Below, piece by piece: positions 6,590 to 12,153 of a stretch of DNA of 12,153 nt. Every line of letters begins with the position of its first letter. The stretch's first letter is position 1. The position numbers and the translations under genes are program-made. The DNA comes from Okeania sp. (GTDB lineage: Bacteria > Cyanobacteriota > Cyanobacteriia > Cyanobacteriales > Microcoleaceae), in NCBI RefSeq assembly GCF_035285525.1, contig NZ_JAYKGW010000066.1:1-12153 (forward strand). The letters run 5' to 3'. Below the pieces are notes generated by a model. That model saw only the letters and a list, made by a program, of their open reading frames with translations. It ran no database searches and had not been told where the DNA came from.

Positions 6590-7450
6590 ATGACTCAATT
6601 TCAATTAACAACTCCTGTAGTTCTAATTATATTTAATCGACCAGATACAACAGAAAAAGTATTTCAGATAATTCGTCAAGTAAAACCTCCTCAATTATTT
6701 GCAATAGCTGATGCTCCTCGTATTAATAAATCAGGAGAATTTGAGAAATGTATGGCAGCAAGAAAGATAATTAATCAAGTTGATTGGAAGTGCGAAGTTT
6801 TAACTAATTATGCTGAGATAAACTTAACTGGTAAAAGAAGAATTCCTAGTGGCTTGAACTGGGTTTTTAGTATGGTTGAATCAGCAATTATATTAGAGGA
6901 TGACTGTTTACCACATCTGACTTTTTTTCAGTTTTGCCAAGAATTATTAGATAGATATCGTCATAATAAAAAAGTAATGGCGATATCTGGAGATAATTTT
7001 TTGTTTGGTCAAAAATATATAGAATCTAGTTATTATTTTTCTCATTATTTTCATGGTTGGGGTTGGGCAACTTGGCGACGAGCATGGCAAAATTTTGACG
7101 ATAAATTGACATTATGGCCTCAATTACGAGATAGTAATAGGTTAAATAATATTCTCTCAAATACTCAGGCAGTTAAATATTGGTCAAACATTTTTGCTAA
7201 GTGCTATGAAAATTATTTAGCTTGGGATTATGCTTGGTTATTTGCTGGTTGGAGTCGTAATAAATTAACAATTATTCCTCGGATAAATTTAGTTTCTAAT
7301 ATTGGTTTTAGCCCAACTGCTACTCATACTAAAGATGTGAATAGTAAGTTTGCTAATATGTCTGTGGAGGAAATGATTTTTCCAATGAATCATCCTGATT
7401 CTATTATTCGTAATATTCAAGCTGACAAATTTACAGAAAAAATCATGTTT
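6590..7450 (+). other. Module 1: GT-A-fold glycosyltransferase (GT2/GNT-I-like, 'HlpA-like')
   Basis: Motifs seen are [36 protein letters not shown], the acidic motif AIILEDDC and [10 protein letters not shown]. Confidence 0.6.
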
Positions 7451-10400: not shown

Positions 10401-12153
10401 TAGCTTGGGAAGATTCAGTCTTAGATTATACTCAAAAAATTCTTTTAGAAATTCCCGTAAAGCCAAAATGGAAAGTATTAGAAATTGGCTGCGGATTTGG
10501 TTGCTTCATCAAAAAATTCCGAGAAAAATTTGCACGGGTAGATGGTGTAGATATTTCGGAAAATATGATTAATTTTGCTAAACAATATTTGGCTGATGGA
10601 AAACAAAATGGAGAAGTTTATATTAATAATGGCTATGATTTACAACAATTTCCTGACCAAAATTATGACTTTGTTTATGCAACAATTGTATTTCAAAATA
10701 TTCGTTCTATTTCTATAGTCAAAAGTTATTTAAGAGAAACATTTAGAGTGTTAAAACCAGGAGGATATTTCCGACTTCAGGTACAGGATCCTAGCACTCC
10801 AGATTTAGAAAATTTTGATGAGGAAGATGCAAAAGATAAACAATATTATTTTTCTGGGAATGCTTATACTGAGGAACAATTAAAAGATTTATTAATGGGA
10901 GCAGGGTTTAATTTAGTTTCTTTAAAATCTGCTAAACCTTCGATTTGGGCAACGGTAAGGCGAGAAGAAAAAGTAGAAGTAGCTGTAGAACATTTTCCTC
11001 GAATAACTACTCTTAAAAATAATCAAATGAGTATTGAATATCCAGAAATTTCTCCATTGTCAGATAATAATCATCGACCTTTTTGGTCTGTGGTTATTCC
11101 TACTTATAAAAAGGTGAAATATTTAGAACAAACTTTGAAAAGTGTTTTGGAACAAGCTCCTTCTCCAGAGGAAATGCAAATAGAAGTAATTAATGATTGT
11201 CCTGATAATAAAATCCAAAATGAAATAGCAGCTATTGTCCGAAAGGTAGGGGGAGAAAGGGTTAATTTTTATCGGCATTTTCCTCAAGATATTGGTCAAG
11301 CTCCGATTTTTAATGTTTGTCTTCAAAGAGCAAGAGGATATTGGATTCATTTACTCCATGATGATGATTTTGTTTTGCCTGGTTTTTATGAAAAGTTACG
11401 TCGGGGAATAGAAAATAAAACAACTTTAGGAGCAGCATTTTGTCGCCACTATTATATAGATGAAAATGATAATAAAAAGTTTTTGTCTGTGTTGGAAAGA
11501 GACACTCCTGGAGTTATAGAAAAATTTTTAGAAAAGATTACTGTAGAGCAACGTATTCAAGTTGTGGGAATGGTGGTTAAACGTGAAGTTTATGAACAAT
11601 TAGGTGGTTTTTGTGACCAAGCTGTTTCTGCTGCTGACTGGGAAATTTGGAAGCGAATAGCTACTTTTTATCCTATTTGGTTTGAACCGGAAATTTTGGC
11701 TTGTTTCCGTTTACATTCTATTTCGGAAACTTCCCGTTTAATGCAGTCTGGAGGTAATATAGAAAATGCTAGGAAAGCTATAGAAATTACTGAAACTTAT
11801 TTACCAAAAAATATGGCTGAAAATTTATCGAATCAAGCTAGGGAACATTATGCTCTTGAAGCTATGAAAATGGCTGCTTCTATGTTGAAAGGAGGTAATA
11901 CTAATGGAGCGATCGCTCAGATTAGGGAGGGTCTTAGATGTAGTAAGTCTCTTACGGTAATTAATTTATTGGTTTCTATTTTAATTAATGCTGAAACAGA
12001 GGTTGAATCTTCTTTGAGTCAGACAAAAAGTCAGTCTGAAGTATCTTTAAAATCTCAGTCATTAGATTCTAATAAATCTGGAGATATTGATATTGAATCT
12101 TCTTTGAGTCAGACAAAAAGTCAGCCAGAAGTATCTTTAAAATCTCAGTCATT
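6590..12153 (+). CDS. Giant multidomain glycosyltransferase/methyltransferase (GT-A + MTase + GT4 + MTase + GT2 with three repeat regions); 3' end lies beyond the window
   Basis: My manual translation from ATG 6590 (in-frame TAA at 6575-6577 upstream) gives 1854 sense codons and no stop through 12153. The frame was checked at independent motifs: GYG 7727, EGFGLP 9524, EIGCGFG 10481 and VVIPTY 11090 all sit in the phase of 6590. This ORF is not in the supplied track. Confidence 0.9.
   Translation, partial: [1854 protein letters not shown]
7457..8200 (+). other. Module 2: zinc-ribbon plus class I SAM-dependent methyltransferase
   Basis: The zinc ribbon is CKVCGS...CSNCG. Motif I is [11 protein letters not shown], followed by [11 protein letters not shown]. 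Confidence 0.7.
8210..8722 (+). repeat. Repeat region R1: 57-nt (19-aa) in-frame tandem repeat x9
   Basis: Units begin at 8210, 8267, 8324, 8381, 8438, 8495, 8552, 8609 and 8666. The consensus is [19 protein letters not shown], alternating with [19 protein letters not shown]. The 112-nt stretch 8382-8493 is identical to 8553-8664, which indicates a 171-nt higher-order duplication. Confidence 0.95.
8723..9793 (+). other. Module 3: GT-B-fold glycosyltransferase (CAZy GT4 / Pfam Glycos_transf_1 type)
   Basis: Motifs seen are [20 protein letters not shown] and [39 protein letters not shown]. Confidence 0.85.
9797..10306 (+). repeat. Repeat region R2: 90-nt (30-aa) in-frame tandem repeat, 6 units with one 30-nt in-frame deletion
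   Basis: Units begin at 9797, 9887, 9977, 10067, 10133 and 10217. The consensus is [30 protein letters not shown]. Units 4 and 5 are 66 and 84 nt, so 10 codons are missing across their junction. Confidence 0.95.
10307..10985 (+). other. Module 4: class I SAM-dependent methyltransferase (Methyltransf_11/25-like)
   Basis: Motif I is [10 protein letters not shown], post-I is VDGVDIS, and [12 protein letters not shown] is also present. Confidence 0.8.
11075..11810 (+). other. Module 5: GT2-family (GT-A) glycosyltransferase
   Basis: Motifs seen are [36 protein letters not shown] and [10 protein letters not shown] (DxD). A helical tail follows, including [14 protein letters not shown]. Confidence 0.85.
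12002..12153 (+). repeat. Repeat region R3: 90-nt (30-aa) Ser-rich in-frame tandem repeat, at least 1.7 units, cut by the window end
   Basis: 12003-12063 matches 12093-12153 at 59 of 61 positions. The unit is (V/I)[10 protein letters not shown](S/P)[18 protein letters not shown]. Confidence 0.85.

Follow-up and report, generated by a model that had tools for sequence, protein, structure and literature searches.

The window, a stretch of 12,153 bp that is an entire contig of Okeania sp., ends in a giant open reading frame in which five catalytic modules are joined in one polypeptide, in the order GT-A, MTase, GT4, MTase and GT2. This ORF is a real gene that has been selectively maintained. We consider the chances about even that it encodes the N-terminal 70-75% of a soluble cytoplasmic multi-enzyme of ~2,500 aa, which would assemble and methylate a short hetero-oligosaccharide, most likely on a protein acceptor. 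The enzyme appears more likely to attach a methylated chain of sugars to a protein than to build an O-antigen-like polysaccharide; the protein acceptor, the order of the reactions and the O-methylation of sugars are all points that we infer. The gene and its neighbours are as follows.

774-2615, minus strand: ftsH, the conserved divergent neighbour that marks the locus type (Pfam FtsH_ext, AAA and Peptidase_M41)
3221-6455, plus strand: partner pseudogene (MT24-like, TPR, FkbM methyltransferase) with stops, frameshifts and an IS insertion
4740-6005, minus strand: TnpB ORF of the IS200/IS605 family (Pfam), 421 aa, within the partner pseudogene
6460-6578, no strand assigned: 48-bp tandem repeat (TRF), 2.5 copies with a palindrome inside each, directly upstream of the start codon
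6590-12153, plus strand: giant multi-enzyme gene, 5' part, 1,854 codons, stop beyond the contig end

As the initial annotation had claimed, the frame stays open from the ATG at 6590 to the end of the window (1,854 codons, the last full one ending at base 12151). At the per-codon stop probability that follows from the local base composition (0.087), so long a frame would stay open by chance with a probability of ~10^-73, and each of the other five frames has 117-235 stops. An in-frame stop at 6575-6577, just 5' of this ATG, makes it the earliest start that the frame allows, and the N-termini of orthologs (MTQFQL) agree with it. Over the 5.5 kb of the frame, at a G+C content of 31%, there is no stop and no frameshift; the shadow ORFs at 7917-8120 and 11123-11350 were confirmed. 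The ORF is absent from the program-made list because that list leaves out any ORF continuing past the edge of the source, just as had been presumed. It is not a novel entry, however: the 1,854-residue product is identical to a partial protein of Okeania sp. in NCBI, from the 12,153-bp contig, which is already annotated there as a partial methyltransferase-domain protein. The purifying selection that had been proposed is borne out in every one of the five modules, with dN/dS values of 0.15-0.36 against Dapis and Trichodesmium. No transmembrane-grade hydrophobic segment was found in the product (peak Kyte-Doolittle mean over 19 residues, 1.47), and this hydrophobicity scan suggests a cytoplasmic and soluble protein.

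The partner gene upstream is truly broken, as had been noted. Its tblastn pieces (3221-3769, 3750-4505, 4502-4738 and 6306-6455) alternate in frame, with in-frame stops at 3374, 3789, 4092, 4098 and 4356 and at least two frameshifts, and the homology picks up again at 6306, past the TnpB ORF (Pfam OrfB_IS605, Cas12f1-like_TNB and HTH_OrfB_IS605). Where the partner is intact, it has 569 aa (Trichodesmium) or 353 aa (Dapis); accessory genes are also fragmented in O. hirsuta. Since relatives have this TPR-methyltransferase partner as well as a GT41 module, the idea of a self-contained assembly line could not be upheld. The same ftsH arrangement is found in Dapis, Trichodesmium, Limnospira, Planktothrix, Microcoleus and O. 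hirsuta, and altogether in 20 of 69 cyanobacterial loci (one genome per species; 46 loci have at least 9 kb downstream). The 48-bp repeat had no Rfam match, and promoter-like matches upstream of the start were not commoner than in shuffled sequence.

Within the frame, the modules and repeat tracts are arranged as listed below.

6590-7474, plus strand: module 1, GT-A fold glycosyltransferase, GT13 (GnT-I)-like, aa 1-295, motif E103-D104-D105
7475-8194, plus strand: module 2, four-Cys zinc ribbon and class I SAM methyltransferase (Methyltransf_23), aa 296-535
8201-8713, plus strand: repeat tract 1 (TRF), nine in-phase 19-aa (57-bp) units, amplified MT23-to-GT4 linker
8726-9793, plus strand: module 3, GT4 glycosyltransferase (GT-B fold, retaining family), aa 713-1068, E979-x7-E987
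9797-10315, plus strand: repeat tract 2 (TRF), five 30-aa (90-bp) units and a truncated one, amplified GT4-to-MT11 linker
10325-10984, plus strand: module 4, class I SAM methyltransferase (Methyltransf_11/25), aa 1246-1465
10985-11989, plus strand: module 5, GT2 glycosyltransferase (GT-A fold, inverting family), aa 1466-1800, D1536 and D1592-D1593
12003-12153, plus strand: repeat tract 3, 90-bp period, copies at 12003-12063 and 12093-12153, contig ends within

All five modules proposed at the outset are present with intact catalytic motifs, and the four Pfam families that had been anticipated scored above the gathering threshold: Methyltransf_23 (aa 368-499, E 5e-38), Glycos_transf_1 (aa 894-1030; with Glyco_trans_1_4, E ~1e-17), Methyltransf_11/25 (aa 1297-1394, E 1.9e-21) and Glycos_transf_2 (aa 1500-1634, E 2e-16). 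Module 1 was sub-threshold against Pfam GNT-I (19.5 bits, cut-off 25.4). Its AlphaFold model (pLDDT 83.5, pTM 0.87) found GnT-I 1fo8 (E 4.9e-9) and POMGnT1 as best Foldseek matches, which suggests a GT13-like fold, and E103 and D105 are invariant. In module 2 the zinc-ribbon cysteines (C298, C301, C324 and C327) and the DxGxGxG motif are conserved at 97-100% among 112 segments. With the model of its methyltransferase part (pLDDT 80-95), KijD1, TcaB9 and MtmC filled Foldseek ranks 1-18 in the PDB (E 5e-11 to 3e-8) and WbdD only ranks 22-25 (E ~1e-5). A WbdD-like capping methyltransferase, as the initial annotation had envisaged, was therefore not supported, and the modelled fold, nearest to sugar methyltransferases, points to sugar methylation as the role of this module. 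E979 and E987 of module 3 are 100% conserved in 128 segments; the diagnostic Asp residues of module 5 also show 100% conservation, and the ExGxGxG motif and D1321 of module 4 are conserved as well. The nearest PDB sequences to module 4 are phosphoethanolamine N-methyltransferases (E 1e-13). PDB relatives of modules 3 (for example, MshA and PimB) and 5 are distant. The GT2 and GT4 modules have weak NCBIfam similarities, mostly to polysaccharide glycosyltransferases (TuaG, Hps and Eps), and the nearest NCBIfam/PDB relatives of the GT4 module include MshA, BshA and a maltose-1-phosphate synthase.

Five enzymes are a lower bound. Full-length orthologs, Tery_3753 of Trichodesmium among them, have 2,463-3,041 aa and extend ~650-1,200 residues past the position of the contig end; every one of them carries a GT41 domain (PF13844), and the module order is kept in nine ortholog clusters. 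The GT41 catalytic domain of the orthologs is complete, with the catalytic-Lys motif aligned, and matches SPINDLY best in the PDB (E 1.3e-34), followed by bacterial OGT 5djs (3e-27) and human OGT (1e-23). Judging from these orthologs, the Okeania gene probably also encodes a GT41 module beyond the contig end. GT41 stands as a gene of its own beside the family gene in Nostoc, Nodularia and Cyanobacterium aponinum, and its being fused in other genomes is evidence of fusion or fission. Of the 69 cyanobacterial loci, 58 had GT41; among the 46 with at least 9 kb downstream, the number was 44. Some other family members have sulfotransferase, GT11 fucosyltransferase, FkbM or CmcI-like modules. It had been asked whether the architecture might prove common and already characterised; it is indeed common in filamentous cyanobacteria, yet no characterised family member was found in literature and database searches, in line with the initial impression.

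Modules 2, 3 and 5 are each followed by an in-frame repeat tract, as had been described, but these tracts are not the coiled-coil ruler for which WbbB had been taken as a model. They represent lineage-specific amplification of short linkers that evolve almost neutrally under relaxed constraint. Tract 1 has one unit in Trichodesmium, two in O. hirsuta, five in Dapis and nine in this Okeania; tract 2 has one unit in Trichodesmium and O. hirsuta and three in Dapis. pN/pS is ~0.54 in tract 1, where the DNA of units 5 and 8 is 100% identical, and ~0.9 in tract 2, where third positions show no excess. The copies of tract 3 are 97% identical; orthologs carry just one unit there. No 3.5-residue hydrophobic periodicity (heptad signal) was detected in the repeats, which contain 3 Pro and 6 Gly in tract 1 and 5 Pro and 3 Gly in tract 2 and appear in the predicted structure as broken helices of low confidence. 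Variable copy number among close relatives, near-neutral evolution, lack of heptads and the Pro/Gly content thus led us to reject a ruler.

On the basis of these results, the C-terminal GT41 would place the first sugar on Ser/Thr of a protein acceptor, possibly brought in by TPR or helical partner domains. The GT13-like GT-A, GT4 and GT2 modules would contribute one further linkage each, and the Zn-ribbon methyltransferase and the Methyltransf_11 module would methylate particular sugars. The upstream TPR-MT24-FkbM partner, dead in this Okeania, may supply extra methyl groups where it is intact. Flexible linkers would tether the modules; in this lineage, in-frame tandem duplication has stretched them from ~25-40 aa to ~175 aa, a length presumably tolerated rather than functional. 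To our knowledge, every characterised GT41 activity (OGT, SPINDLY and HMW1C-type NGT) acts on proteins, and the near-universal association with this protein-glycosylating family points away from an O-antigen-like polymer. It should be noted that the Zn-ribbon methyltransferase could act on an NDP-sugar instead of the glycan and that the sulfotransferase and GT11 modules of relatives would also suit exopolysaccharide synthesis, both of which count against a protein-linked glycan. We know of no glycoprotein bearing such a glycan from these organisms.

A possible but clearly less probable explanation is that the protein works at the cytoplasmic face as polymerase and modifier of a lipid-linked methylated polysaccharide (O-antigen, sheath or EPS), its glycosyltransferases forming the repeat-unit linkages and its methyltransferases acting on internal or terminal sugars, with an ABC or other exporter encoded elsewhere. 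Cyanobacterial LPS and EPS often contain methylated sugars; the TuaG, Hps and Eps similarities agree with such a product, and the sulfotransferase, GT11, FkbM and CmcI-like modules of relatives would suit its tailoring. There are also precedents for the fusion: WsaE (a methyltransferase with two rhamnosyltransferases), WbbB and Klebsiella O7 ORF6 (a methyltransferase-kinase, a coiled coil and two GT2 modules, with a terminator that has cyanobacterial orthologs), and these polypeptides of known function all use lipid-linked polymers (PMC2943079, PMC11231755). However, the ABC-transporter-dependent context suggested initially was not seen: when nine loci were inspected gene by gene, neither Wzm/Wzt nor Wzx/Wzy turned up within 10 kb, nor did any initiating phosphoglycosyltransferase or any sugar-nucleotide operon. 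Any ABC ATPase match was confined to 10 of the 69 loci, and the sole recurring ABC transporter, beside another locus type, was a C39-peptidase peptide/protein exporter. Cyanobacterial polysaccharide genes are often scattered across the genome, so the lack of nearby exporters is weak evidence. Further points against a polysaccharide are that its methyltransferase is not WbdD-like, that the near-obligate GT41 association is left unexplained and that the coiled coil, a hallmark of terminator proteins in such systems (PMC11231755), is missing here.

It seems rather unlikely that the product is a methylated oligosaccharide or glycoconjugate in soluble or lipid-anchored form that is neither attached to protein nor exported as a polymer, such as a glycolipid or a cytoplasmic polymethylated glycan like the mycobacterial methylmannose/methylglucose polysaccharides, or that the Zn-ribbon methyltransferase modifies an NDP-sugar donor whose sugar a neighbouring glycosyltransferase then transfers. 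A soluble protein with no exporter nearby would fit, as would the fold shared with NDP-hexose C3-methyltransferases, GT4 relatives that include users of small soluble acceptors, and solved MT11 relatives that methylate a small phospho-amine. On the other hand, the Zn-ribbon methyltransferase has only ~240 aa and no Pfam match to the C-terminal NDP-sugar-binding domain of the TcaB9 type, no 4,6-dehydratase or ketoreductase genes for a 4-keto sugar lie nearby, and the GT41, TPR and pilin associations are not accounted for. Least probable is a gene in decay or partly an assembly artefact, with mis-assembled repeat numbers or a disrupted downstream part. The dead partner, the fragmented accessory genes of O. 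hirsuta, the identical repeat units, the break inside tract 3 and the apparently draft or metagenome-type source (one contig, one member) could be read in this way, but the unbroken frame next to a gene with five stops, dN/dS well under 1 in each module, the intact motifs and the linker amplification in the independent Dapis genome argue against it.

Among known systems, KijD1 and TcaB9, to which module 2 is far closer than to WbdD, are NDP-sugar C3-methyltransferases. For a protein-linked glycan, a published parallel concerns pilins. PilA glycosylation in S. elongatus depends on its cytoplasmic Ogt (TPR and GT41), ogt and pilA are widely found side by side, and PilA accumulation in N. punctiforme requires ogtA (PMC9306852), which is co-regulated with pilus genes (PMC6495340). 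TPR-bearing partner genes recur among the loci of relatives, and the C39-peptidase exporter beside another locus type also speaks for a protein substrate. The family is linked to a pair of pilin-like and ogt-like genes in a paralogous locus type: a pilin-like gene paired with a GT41 gene on the same strand, and convergent to the family gene, was found in 21 of the 69 loci (18 of the 46 well-covered ones). Among ftsH-linked loci, the type found in the window, just 1 of 20 had any pilin-like gene close by, which speaks against this reading; in Planktothrix serta a pilin-like gene lies 4 kb downstream. Identity between the cis GT41 module and the GT41 proteins encoded next to pilin-like genes is only ~23%, so the acceptor may differ. 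The published Ogt-PilA glycosylation system has its match in the pilin-like/GT41 gene pairs at loci of this family.

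The reading frame that opens at ATG 6590 was found to be open over all 1,854 codons of 6590-12153. An in-frame stop at 6575-6577 makes this ATG the earliest possible start of the giant ORF, and the encoded N-terminus (MTQFQL) is the same as in orthologs. At the base composition of this segment (32% G+C) a stop would be expected per 11-12 codons, and the chance of an open run of 1,854 codons, calculated from base composition, is ∼10^-73; the five other frames contain 117-235 stops over the same stretch. The initial annotation had called this ORF unlisted. It is indeed missing from the ORF track because its frame runs off the end of the sequence, and ORFs that leave the sequence go unlisted there; however, the window is a whole public contig, and NCBI lists an identical 1,854-aa protein under the generic name 'methyltransferase domain-containing protein, partial [Okeania sp.]'. 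The purifying selection that had been suspected was confirmed by comparison with the Dapis and Trichodesmium orthologs, in which dN/dS was 0.15-0.36 for every module (Nei-Gojobori). The condition of the neighboring genes provides further evidence of selection, as the adjoining partner gene (encoding an MT24-like domain, TPRs and an FkbM methyltransferase) is heavily decayed and the 5.5 kb of the giant gene are intact. The features on its upstream side are as follows.

774-2615, minus strand: ftsH, upstream of the giant gene and divergent from it
3221-6455, plus strand: remains of the partner gene, a pseudogene between ftsH and the giant gene
about 4700-6305: IS200/IS605-family element, inserted between the last two partner pieces
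4740-6005, minus strand: apparently intact IS605-family TnpB ORF of 421 aa

The intact partner of Trichodesmium has 569 aa, with a weak MT24-like domain, TPRs and the FkbM methyltransferase. When it was used as a tblastn query, pieces were recovered at 3221-3769, 3750-4505, 4502-4738 and 6306-6455 in alternating frames, with in-frame stops at 3374, 3789, 4092, 4098 and 4356, at least two frameshifts and the IS insertion. In O. hirsuta the TPR and FkbM parts of the partner are on different ORFs. Thus, this clade is losing accessory methyltransferases but keeping the giant gene. The IS200/IS605 element of the window showed no TnpA ORF; near its end, at 6258-6287, is a hairpin with a perfect 9-bp stem (ATCCCGTTA...TAACGGGAT), and in Trichodesmium, Limnospira and O. 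hirsuta TnpB remnants likewise adjoin ftsH. A marked contrast in base composition was observed between adjacent conserved genes, ftsH (window 501-2500) having 41-45% G+C vs 30-35% in the rest of the window, including the giant gene.

The five modules proposed from the sequence (GT-A glycosyltransferase (GT), methyltransferase (MT), GT4, methyltransferase and GT2) were all recovered, four of them by Pfam and the GT-A module by predicted structure. The anticipated Glycos_transf_1, Glycos_transf_2 and Methyltransf_11/23/25 matches were all well above the gathering thresholds.

aa 368-499: Methyltransf_23, above the Pfam gathering threshold (module 2)
aa 894-1030: Glycos_transf_1 / Glyco_trans_1_4, above the threshold (module 3)
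aa 1297-1394: Methyltransf_11/25/12, above the threshold (module 4)
aa 1500-1634: Glycos_transf_2, above the threshold (module 5)

Module 3 scored 63.9-66.5 bits for Glycos_transf_1 (cut-off 26.4) and carries the E-x7-E motif of GT4 enzymes in its C-terminal Rossmann lobe (E979 and E987, 100% conserved in homologs). Module 5 scored 60.6-63.9 bits for Glycos_transf_2 (cut-off 23.3), and the DxD-type acidic motif of GT2 enzymes (D1536 and D1592-D1593) is likewise conserved in 100% of homologs. NCBIfam had no equivalog for any module. The N-terminal 295 residues (module 1) gave a sub-threshold Pfam match to GNT-I (19.5 bits vs a cut-off of 25.4). Sequence searches of the PDB with module 1 and with module 2 found no match, so structure prediction was needed for both. 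For module 1, 19 homologous segments were aligned and an AlphaFold model was computed, which has a GT-A fold (pLDDT 83.5, pTM 0.87). Its top Foldseek matches were rabbit GnT-I (1fo8, E 4.9e-9, TM 0.50) and human POMGnT1 (E 5e-9 to 1e-7 for the top matches), followed by GnT-II, COLGALT1, hyaluronan synthase and SpsA. Module 1 shares with GnT-I and POMGnT1 (both GT13) the GT-A fold and the EDD metal/nucleotide-sugar motif (E103-D104-D105, conserved in homologs), whereas the identity is only 13-16%, the TM-score is ∼0.5 and the Pfam match does not reach the gathering threshold; moreover, unlike these enzymes, module 1 is bacterial and has thousands of stand-alone bacterial homologs. On the basis of the model, module 1 is predicted to be GT13-like in fold, with CAZy GT13 membership below the profile threshold.

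Both methyltransferase modules are of the SAM-dependent class I type, with Methyltransf_23 at 130.8 bits in module 2 and Methyltransf_11 at 77 bits in module 4, and their SAM glycine loops (D380xGxGxG386 and E1298xGxGxG1304, respectively) are conserved in homologs. Module 2 (the Zn-ribbon methyltransferase, Zn-MT) has a four-Cys zinc ribbon ahead of the methyltransferase domain (C298, C301, C324 and C327; 99% conserved). A profile search gave only marginal matches for it; in a Foldseek search with its predicted structure (pLDDT 80-95 in the methyltransferase part), ranks 1-18 were KijD1, TcaB9 and MtmC (E 5e-11 to 3e-8). These zinc-binding NDP-hexose C3-methyltransferases have the same arrangement of an N-terminal Cys4 zinc domain and a class I SAM domain, but differ from module 2 in that sequence identity is 12-15%. 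Their C-terminal NDP-sugar-binding domain (Pfam Methyltransf_14) was not found in the giant ORF, in which module 2 (∼240 aa) ends at ∼aa 535 and is followed by a linker, and no dehydratase or reductase genes of a 4-keto-sugar pathway were found in the loci inspected. Module 2 therefore has the predicted TcaB9/KijD1 architecture without strict membership in these C3-methyltransferases. That it is a sugar-directed methyltransferase is a reasonable inference from the model, its reaction probably being O-methylation of a glycan. A specific relationship to the WbdD cap methyltransferase was ruled out, as KijD1 and TcaB9 outrank WbdD structurally (only ranks 22-25, E ∼1e-5). For module 4 (10325-10984), the closest solved structures are those of phosphoethanolamine N-methyltransferases (E ∼1e-13, with almost the entire domain aligned). 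We did not build on this similarity, because similarity among class I methyltransferases is a poor guide to substrate; by this similarity, module 4 might N-methylate an amino or phosphoethanolamine substituent instead of O-methylating a sugar.

The claim of five fused enzymes holds for the modules present, whereas the number itself is a minimum imposed by where the contig ends. Full-length orthologs have 2,463-3,041 aa and the same five-module order: 2,627 aa in Dapis, 2,498 in Okeania hirsuta, 2,517 in Okeania SIO3B5, 2,490 in Trichodesmium (including Tery_3753 / ABG52805.1 of T. erythraeum IMS101) and 2,947-3,041 in Microcoleaceae. Past GT2 come a helical region, a PF13844 (GT41) domain at 105-110 bits and two more copies of a helical module of ∼150 aa. 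For GT41, the whole catalytic domain is present. It matched Arabidopsis SPINDLY (phmmer against PDB, E 1.3e-34, over SPINDLY residues 483-823), Thermobaculum OGT (3e-27), human OGT (1e-23) and XcOGT (1e-13), and the catalytic-lysine motif was aligned ('FYKIIP' with 'LAKITP'). It should be noted that the window contig ends before the corresponding position, and statements on GT41 rest on the orthologs. The helical module (∼110-150 aa) is present in three copies flanking GT41, for example at aa ∼1555-1700, 2170-2310 and 2350-2490 of the full-length ortholog P0004, with a consensus of roughly L..LR.IRK.IA.FWL....LE..Y.G..G.A...LL.S.I; it had no Pfam match and may be a substrate-recruiting or scaffolding domain.

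A word-indexed search identified 228 proteins at E ≤ 1e-10, nearly all cyanobacterial and of 1,000-3,000 aa, to which the MT23-GT4 core (modules 2 and 3) is common at 50-60% identity. Among the matches listed, the GT13-like module occurred in 45 of 120 family proteins, and the other variable modules were GT2, MT11 (the type of module 4), FkbM, GT41, TPR, sulfotransferase, GT11 and radical SAM. An exhaustive search with residues 1-535 returned 13,989 clusters (50% identity) at E ≤ 1e-3 and 3,816 at E ≤ 1e-30, many of which are stand-alone proteins of ∼310 aa (GT13-like) or ∼260-330 aa (Zn-MT), indicating that the giant protein is built of modules that also occur singly. The architecture family is thus common, and its kind is already known from multi-module glycan-assembly enzymes and from GT41-dependent cytoplasmic protein glycosylation. 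No characterization was found in the literature on Tery_3753, this architecture or Trichodesmium GT/MT proteins, and the combination of a GT13-like GT, Zn-MT, GT4, MT, GT2 and GT41, linked to ftsH and joined by freely expanding linkers, is uncharacterized.

Repeat tracts had been described after modules 2, 3 and 5, and three in-frame tracts are present at these positions.

8201-8713, plus strand: repeat tract 1, nine in-phase 19-aa units
9797-10315, plus strand: repeat tract 2, five 30-aa units and one truncated unit
from 12003, plus strand: repeat tract 3, 90-bp period, the contig ending inside the second copy

The position of the contig end within tract 3 is probably why the assembly broke there. 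The copy number varies greatly among close relatives: the unit of tract 1 (MT23-to-GT4 linker) is present once in Trichodesmium, twice in O. hirsuta, five times in Dapis and nine times in the window; that of tract 2 (GT4-to-MT11 linker) once in most orthologs, three times in Dapis and about six times in the window; and that of tract 3 (post-GT2) is single in the other orthologs. Among repeat copies pN/pS was ∼0.54 in tract 1 and ∼0.9 in tract 2, and changes were not concentrated at third positions. A recent three-unit re-duplication accounts for the identical DNA of units 5 and 8 in tract 1. Tracts 1 and 2 contain nine and eight Pro and Gly residues, respectively. No hydrophobic periodicity was detected at 3.5 residues (power 0.12 in tract 1 and 0.004 in tract 2), the maxima (4.5 and 2.6) being at harmonics of the repeat length, and the AlphaFold model of tract 1 consists of six separate broken helices (pLDDT 46-69). 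A coiled-coil ruler, as in the WbbB analogy of the initial annotation, was ruled out for these tracts by the 1-9 copy variation, near-neutral repeats, Pro and Gly content, missing heptad periodicity and broken, low-confidence helices; as judged from sequence and model, the tracts appear to be amplified, weakly constrained linkers and not conserved coiled-coil rulers. Tandem repeats are also found in non-coding parts of the window, and the simplest account of the tracts is a general tendency to tandem duplication that is tolerated only in-frame within linkers. The non-coding arrays are 3177-3221 (16 bp × 2.8 copies) and 6460-6578 (48 bp × 2.5 copies), the latter immediately 5' of the giant-gene start codon and with a palindrome (CTGAA...TTCAG) in each copy. 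An Rfam search of the window gave no match, and a promoter scan 5' of the giant ORF performed no better than shuffled sequence. The octamer ATAACTGA occurs eight times in the window (0.77 expected), three of them within the coding 57-bp repeat; this enrichment was set aside, since its copies, being parts of tandem arrays, are not independent.

We inspected nine loci gene by gene (Dapis, Trichodesmium, O. hirsuta, Limnospira, Planktothrix, Microcoleus, Nostoc FACHB-280, Nodularia and Cyanobacterium aponinum). In the first six, ftsH is divergent from the giant gene as in the window; in the last three, GT41 is encoded by one or two separate adjoining genes, some with TPRs. The occurrence of GT41 as a fused domain in some organisms and as a separate neighbor in others (fusion/fission) is evidence that it works with the MT-GT core. 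A search for nearby ABC-transporter (wzm/wzt-like) or Wzx/Wzy genes had been proposed; no Wzm/Wzt, Wzx/Wzy or sugar-nucleotide operon was present within 10 kb at these nine loci. A larger set of 80 loci (one genome per species, fetched with a Zn-MT/GT4 alignment) was scored by tblastn for the modules, GT41, FtsH, pilin-like genes and one ABC ATPase. With this ABC ATPase probe, only generic ABC ATPases and a C39-peptidase exporter were found across the 80 loci. Counts were made for the 69 cyanobacterial loci and for a subset of 46.

Neighborhood features at cyanobacterial loci (all 69 loci; the 46 with at least 9 kb downstream)
GT41, fused or separate: 58/69; 44/46
Pilin-like gene and GT41 pair on the same strand: 21/69; 18/46
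ftsH-linked type: 20/69; 16/46
Any ABC ATPase match: 10/69; 8/46

The pilin-like genes encode N_methyl and Pilin_GH domains, and every pilin-like/GT41 pair is convergent with the family gene. In 16 of the 20 ftsH-linked loci GT41 lies downstream on the same strand, the remaining ones being on contigs that are cut short. Only one locus combines the ftsH-linked and pilin-linked types, which otherwise exclude each other; both are present in the genomes of Microcoleus N9_B4 and Planktothrix paucivesiculata, and they are therefore paralogous locus types. The window falls in the ftsH-linked type, probably with a fused GT41. A third type (locus L075, 10001-18774; also L064, L068, L082 and L083) consists of a 1,555-aa MT23-GT4-GT2-GT41 protein, a PPIase-domain protein and a 1,001-aa ABC exporter with cNMP-binding and C39-peptidase domains. 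This exporter is one for peptides and proteins, not for glycans, and the third type suggests a secreted peptide or protein substrate. Outside cyanobacteria, six loci (L080, L081, L085, L086, L088 and L089) from Geobacter, Deltaproteobacteria, Anaerolineae and Patescibacteria MAGs have the GT13-like, Zn-MT and GT4 genes or modules together without GT41, pilin or FtsH neighbors, and the GT41 link thus looks cyanobacteria-specific. One contig labeled 'MAG: Rhizobium sp. Q54' (L077) contains a cluster typical of cyanobacteria, with a pilin-like gene, four GT41 genes, TPRs and an MT23-GT4 family gene; mis-binning of cyanobacterial DNA is a likelier origin for this contig than a rhizobium.

To our knowledge, every characterized GT41 enzyme (OGT, SPINDLY and HMW1C-type N-glycosyltransferases; CAZy) modifies proteins, and we know of no all-in-one enzyme that initiates, elongates and methylates a protein glycan. 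PilA glycosylation in cyanobacteria requires Ogt, a cytoplasmic TPR-GT41 protein (PMC9306852); ogt and pilA are often adjacent, and ogtA of N. punctiforme is needed for PilA accumulation and motility (PMC9306852, PMC6495340). The near-obligate GT41 link, the TPR partners, the pilin/ogt neighborhoods, the absence of any membrane segment in the giant protein and of polysaccharide export genes at its loci are the grounds for the best-supported model, a cytoplasmic assembly line, to which we give about even odds. GT41 would put the first sugar on a protein acceptor, the GT13-like, GT4 and GT2 modules would each form one further linkage, and the two internal methyltransferases would methylate the glycan, with the partner adding to this where it is intact. 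The more specific proposal is tentative and, in our judgment, somewhat doubtful: a lipid-independent, single-polypeptide protein O-glycosylation line of filamentous cyanobacteria, comprising a GT41 initiator, three GTs, two methyltransferases and TPR-methyltransferase helpers. Its product would be a defined oligosaccharide with several methyl groups, built directly on a cytoplasmic protein substrate (pilin or another surface protein), the module content being reshuffled among genera at the ftsH-linked locus and the linkers being free to grow by tandem duplication. Nothing decisive was found in the literature on methylated cyanobacterial pilin glycans.

In the main rival reading, the giant protein might make a lipid-linked methylated polysaccharide, as do WsaE, WbbB and ORF6 of Klebsiella O7, the only characterized polypeptides with multiple GTs and a methyltransferase (PMC2943079, PMC11231755). 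A pilin gene is not nearby in the ftsH-linked locus type of the window, and the GT41 module in cis is only ∼23% identical to pilin-adjacent GT41 proteins, and these two points, together with the precedent of the characterized polypeptides, favor a polysaccharide product; however, polysaccharide export genes were not found at the nine loci inspected, and we consider such a product less likely than a protein glycan.

If the protein-glycan reading is true, the family would be the missing elaboration machinery of cyanobacterial pilin or surface-protein glycans, of which only the Ogt step is known now, and a compact, genetically portable line for methylated oligosaccharides would be of glyco-engineering interest. 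The family is abundant in bloom- and mat-forming genera (Trichodesmium, Okeania, Planktothrix, Microcoleus, Limnospira and Nodularia), in which surface glycoconjugates underlie motility, aggregation, sheath and biofilm behavior. On a conservative reading, the locus exemplifies shuffling of GT, MT and GT41 modules by fusion and fission at one conserved chromosomal position, with inter-domain linkers expanding by in-frame tandem duplication and the enzyme left undamaged.

With regard to known systems, WbbB (Klebsiella O12), ORF6 (Klebsiella O7) and WbdD-WbdA (E. coli O9a/O8) also combine GT modules and a terminating activity in one polypeptide or complex, this activity being a methyltransferase in ORF6 and WbdD (PMC11231755). 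Their hallmark is a coiled-coil ruler with the terminator at the distal end and a Wzm/Wzt exporter that recognizes the cap, whereas the window protein has no coiled coil, no nearby exporter and no GT99 module, and GT41 is added in its orthologs. No kinase or Kdo-transferase match, as would be expected for homologs of the WbdD MT-kinase or the WbbB GT99 terminator, was obtained in Pfam or NCBIfam. The ruler-terminator analogy drawn in the initial annotation thus fails on the coiled coil, terminator homology and Wzm/Wzt linkage, and a methyltransferase-GT fusion alone is no sign of such a system. WsaE of Geobacillus stearothermophilus (S-layer glycan) is similar in being a soluble polypeptide with a sugar O-methyltransferase and two GT domains of different linkages (PMC2943079). 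It differs in having three modules, in making a lipid-linked rhamnan with methylation as a chain-terminating cap, and in adjoining wzm/wzt and rml genes, none of which was seen at loci of the window family. The Ogt/OgtA proteins of pilin O-glycosylation (S. elongatus Synpcc7942_0051 and N. punctiforme ogtA) are similar in being cytoplasmic and without a secretion signal and in involving a GT41 catalytic domain together with TPRs, and the gene family of the window adjoins pairs of ogt-like and pilin-like genes in ∼30-40% of cyanobacterial loci (PMC9306852). In contrast to the Ogt systems, the ftsH-linked type is usually without a nearby pilin gene, and the ortholog GT41 is distant (∼23% identity) from the pilin-adjacent one. 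Ogt has a single activity, the reported addition of GlcNAc, whereas the orthologs of this family fuse GT41 to three more GTs and two methyltransferases.
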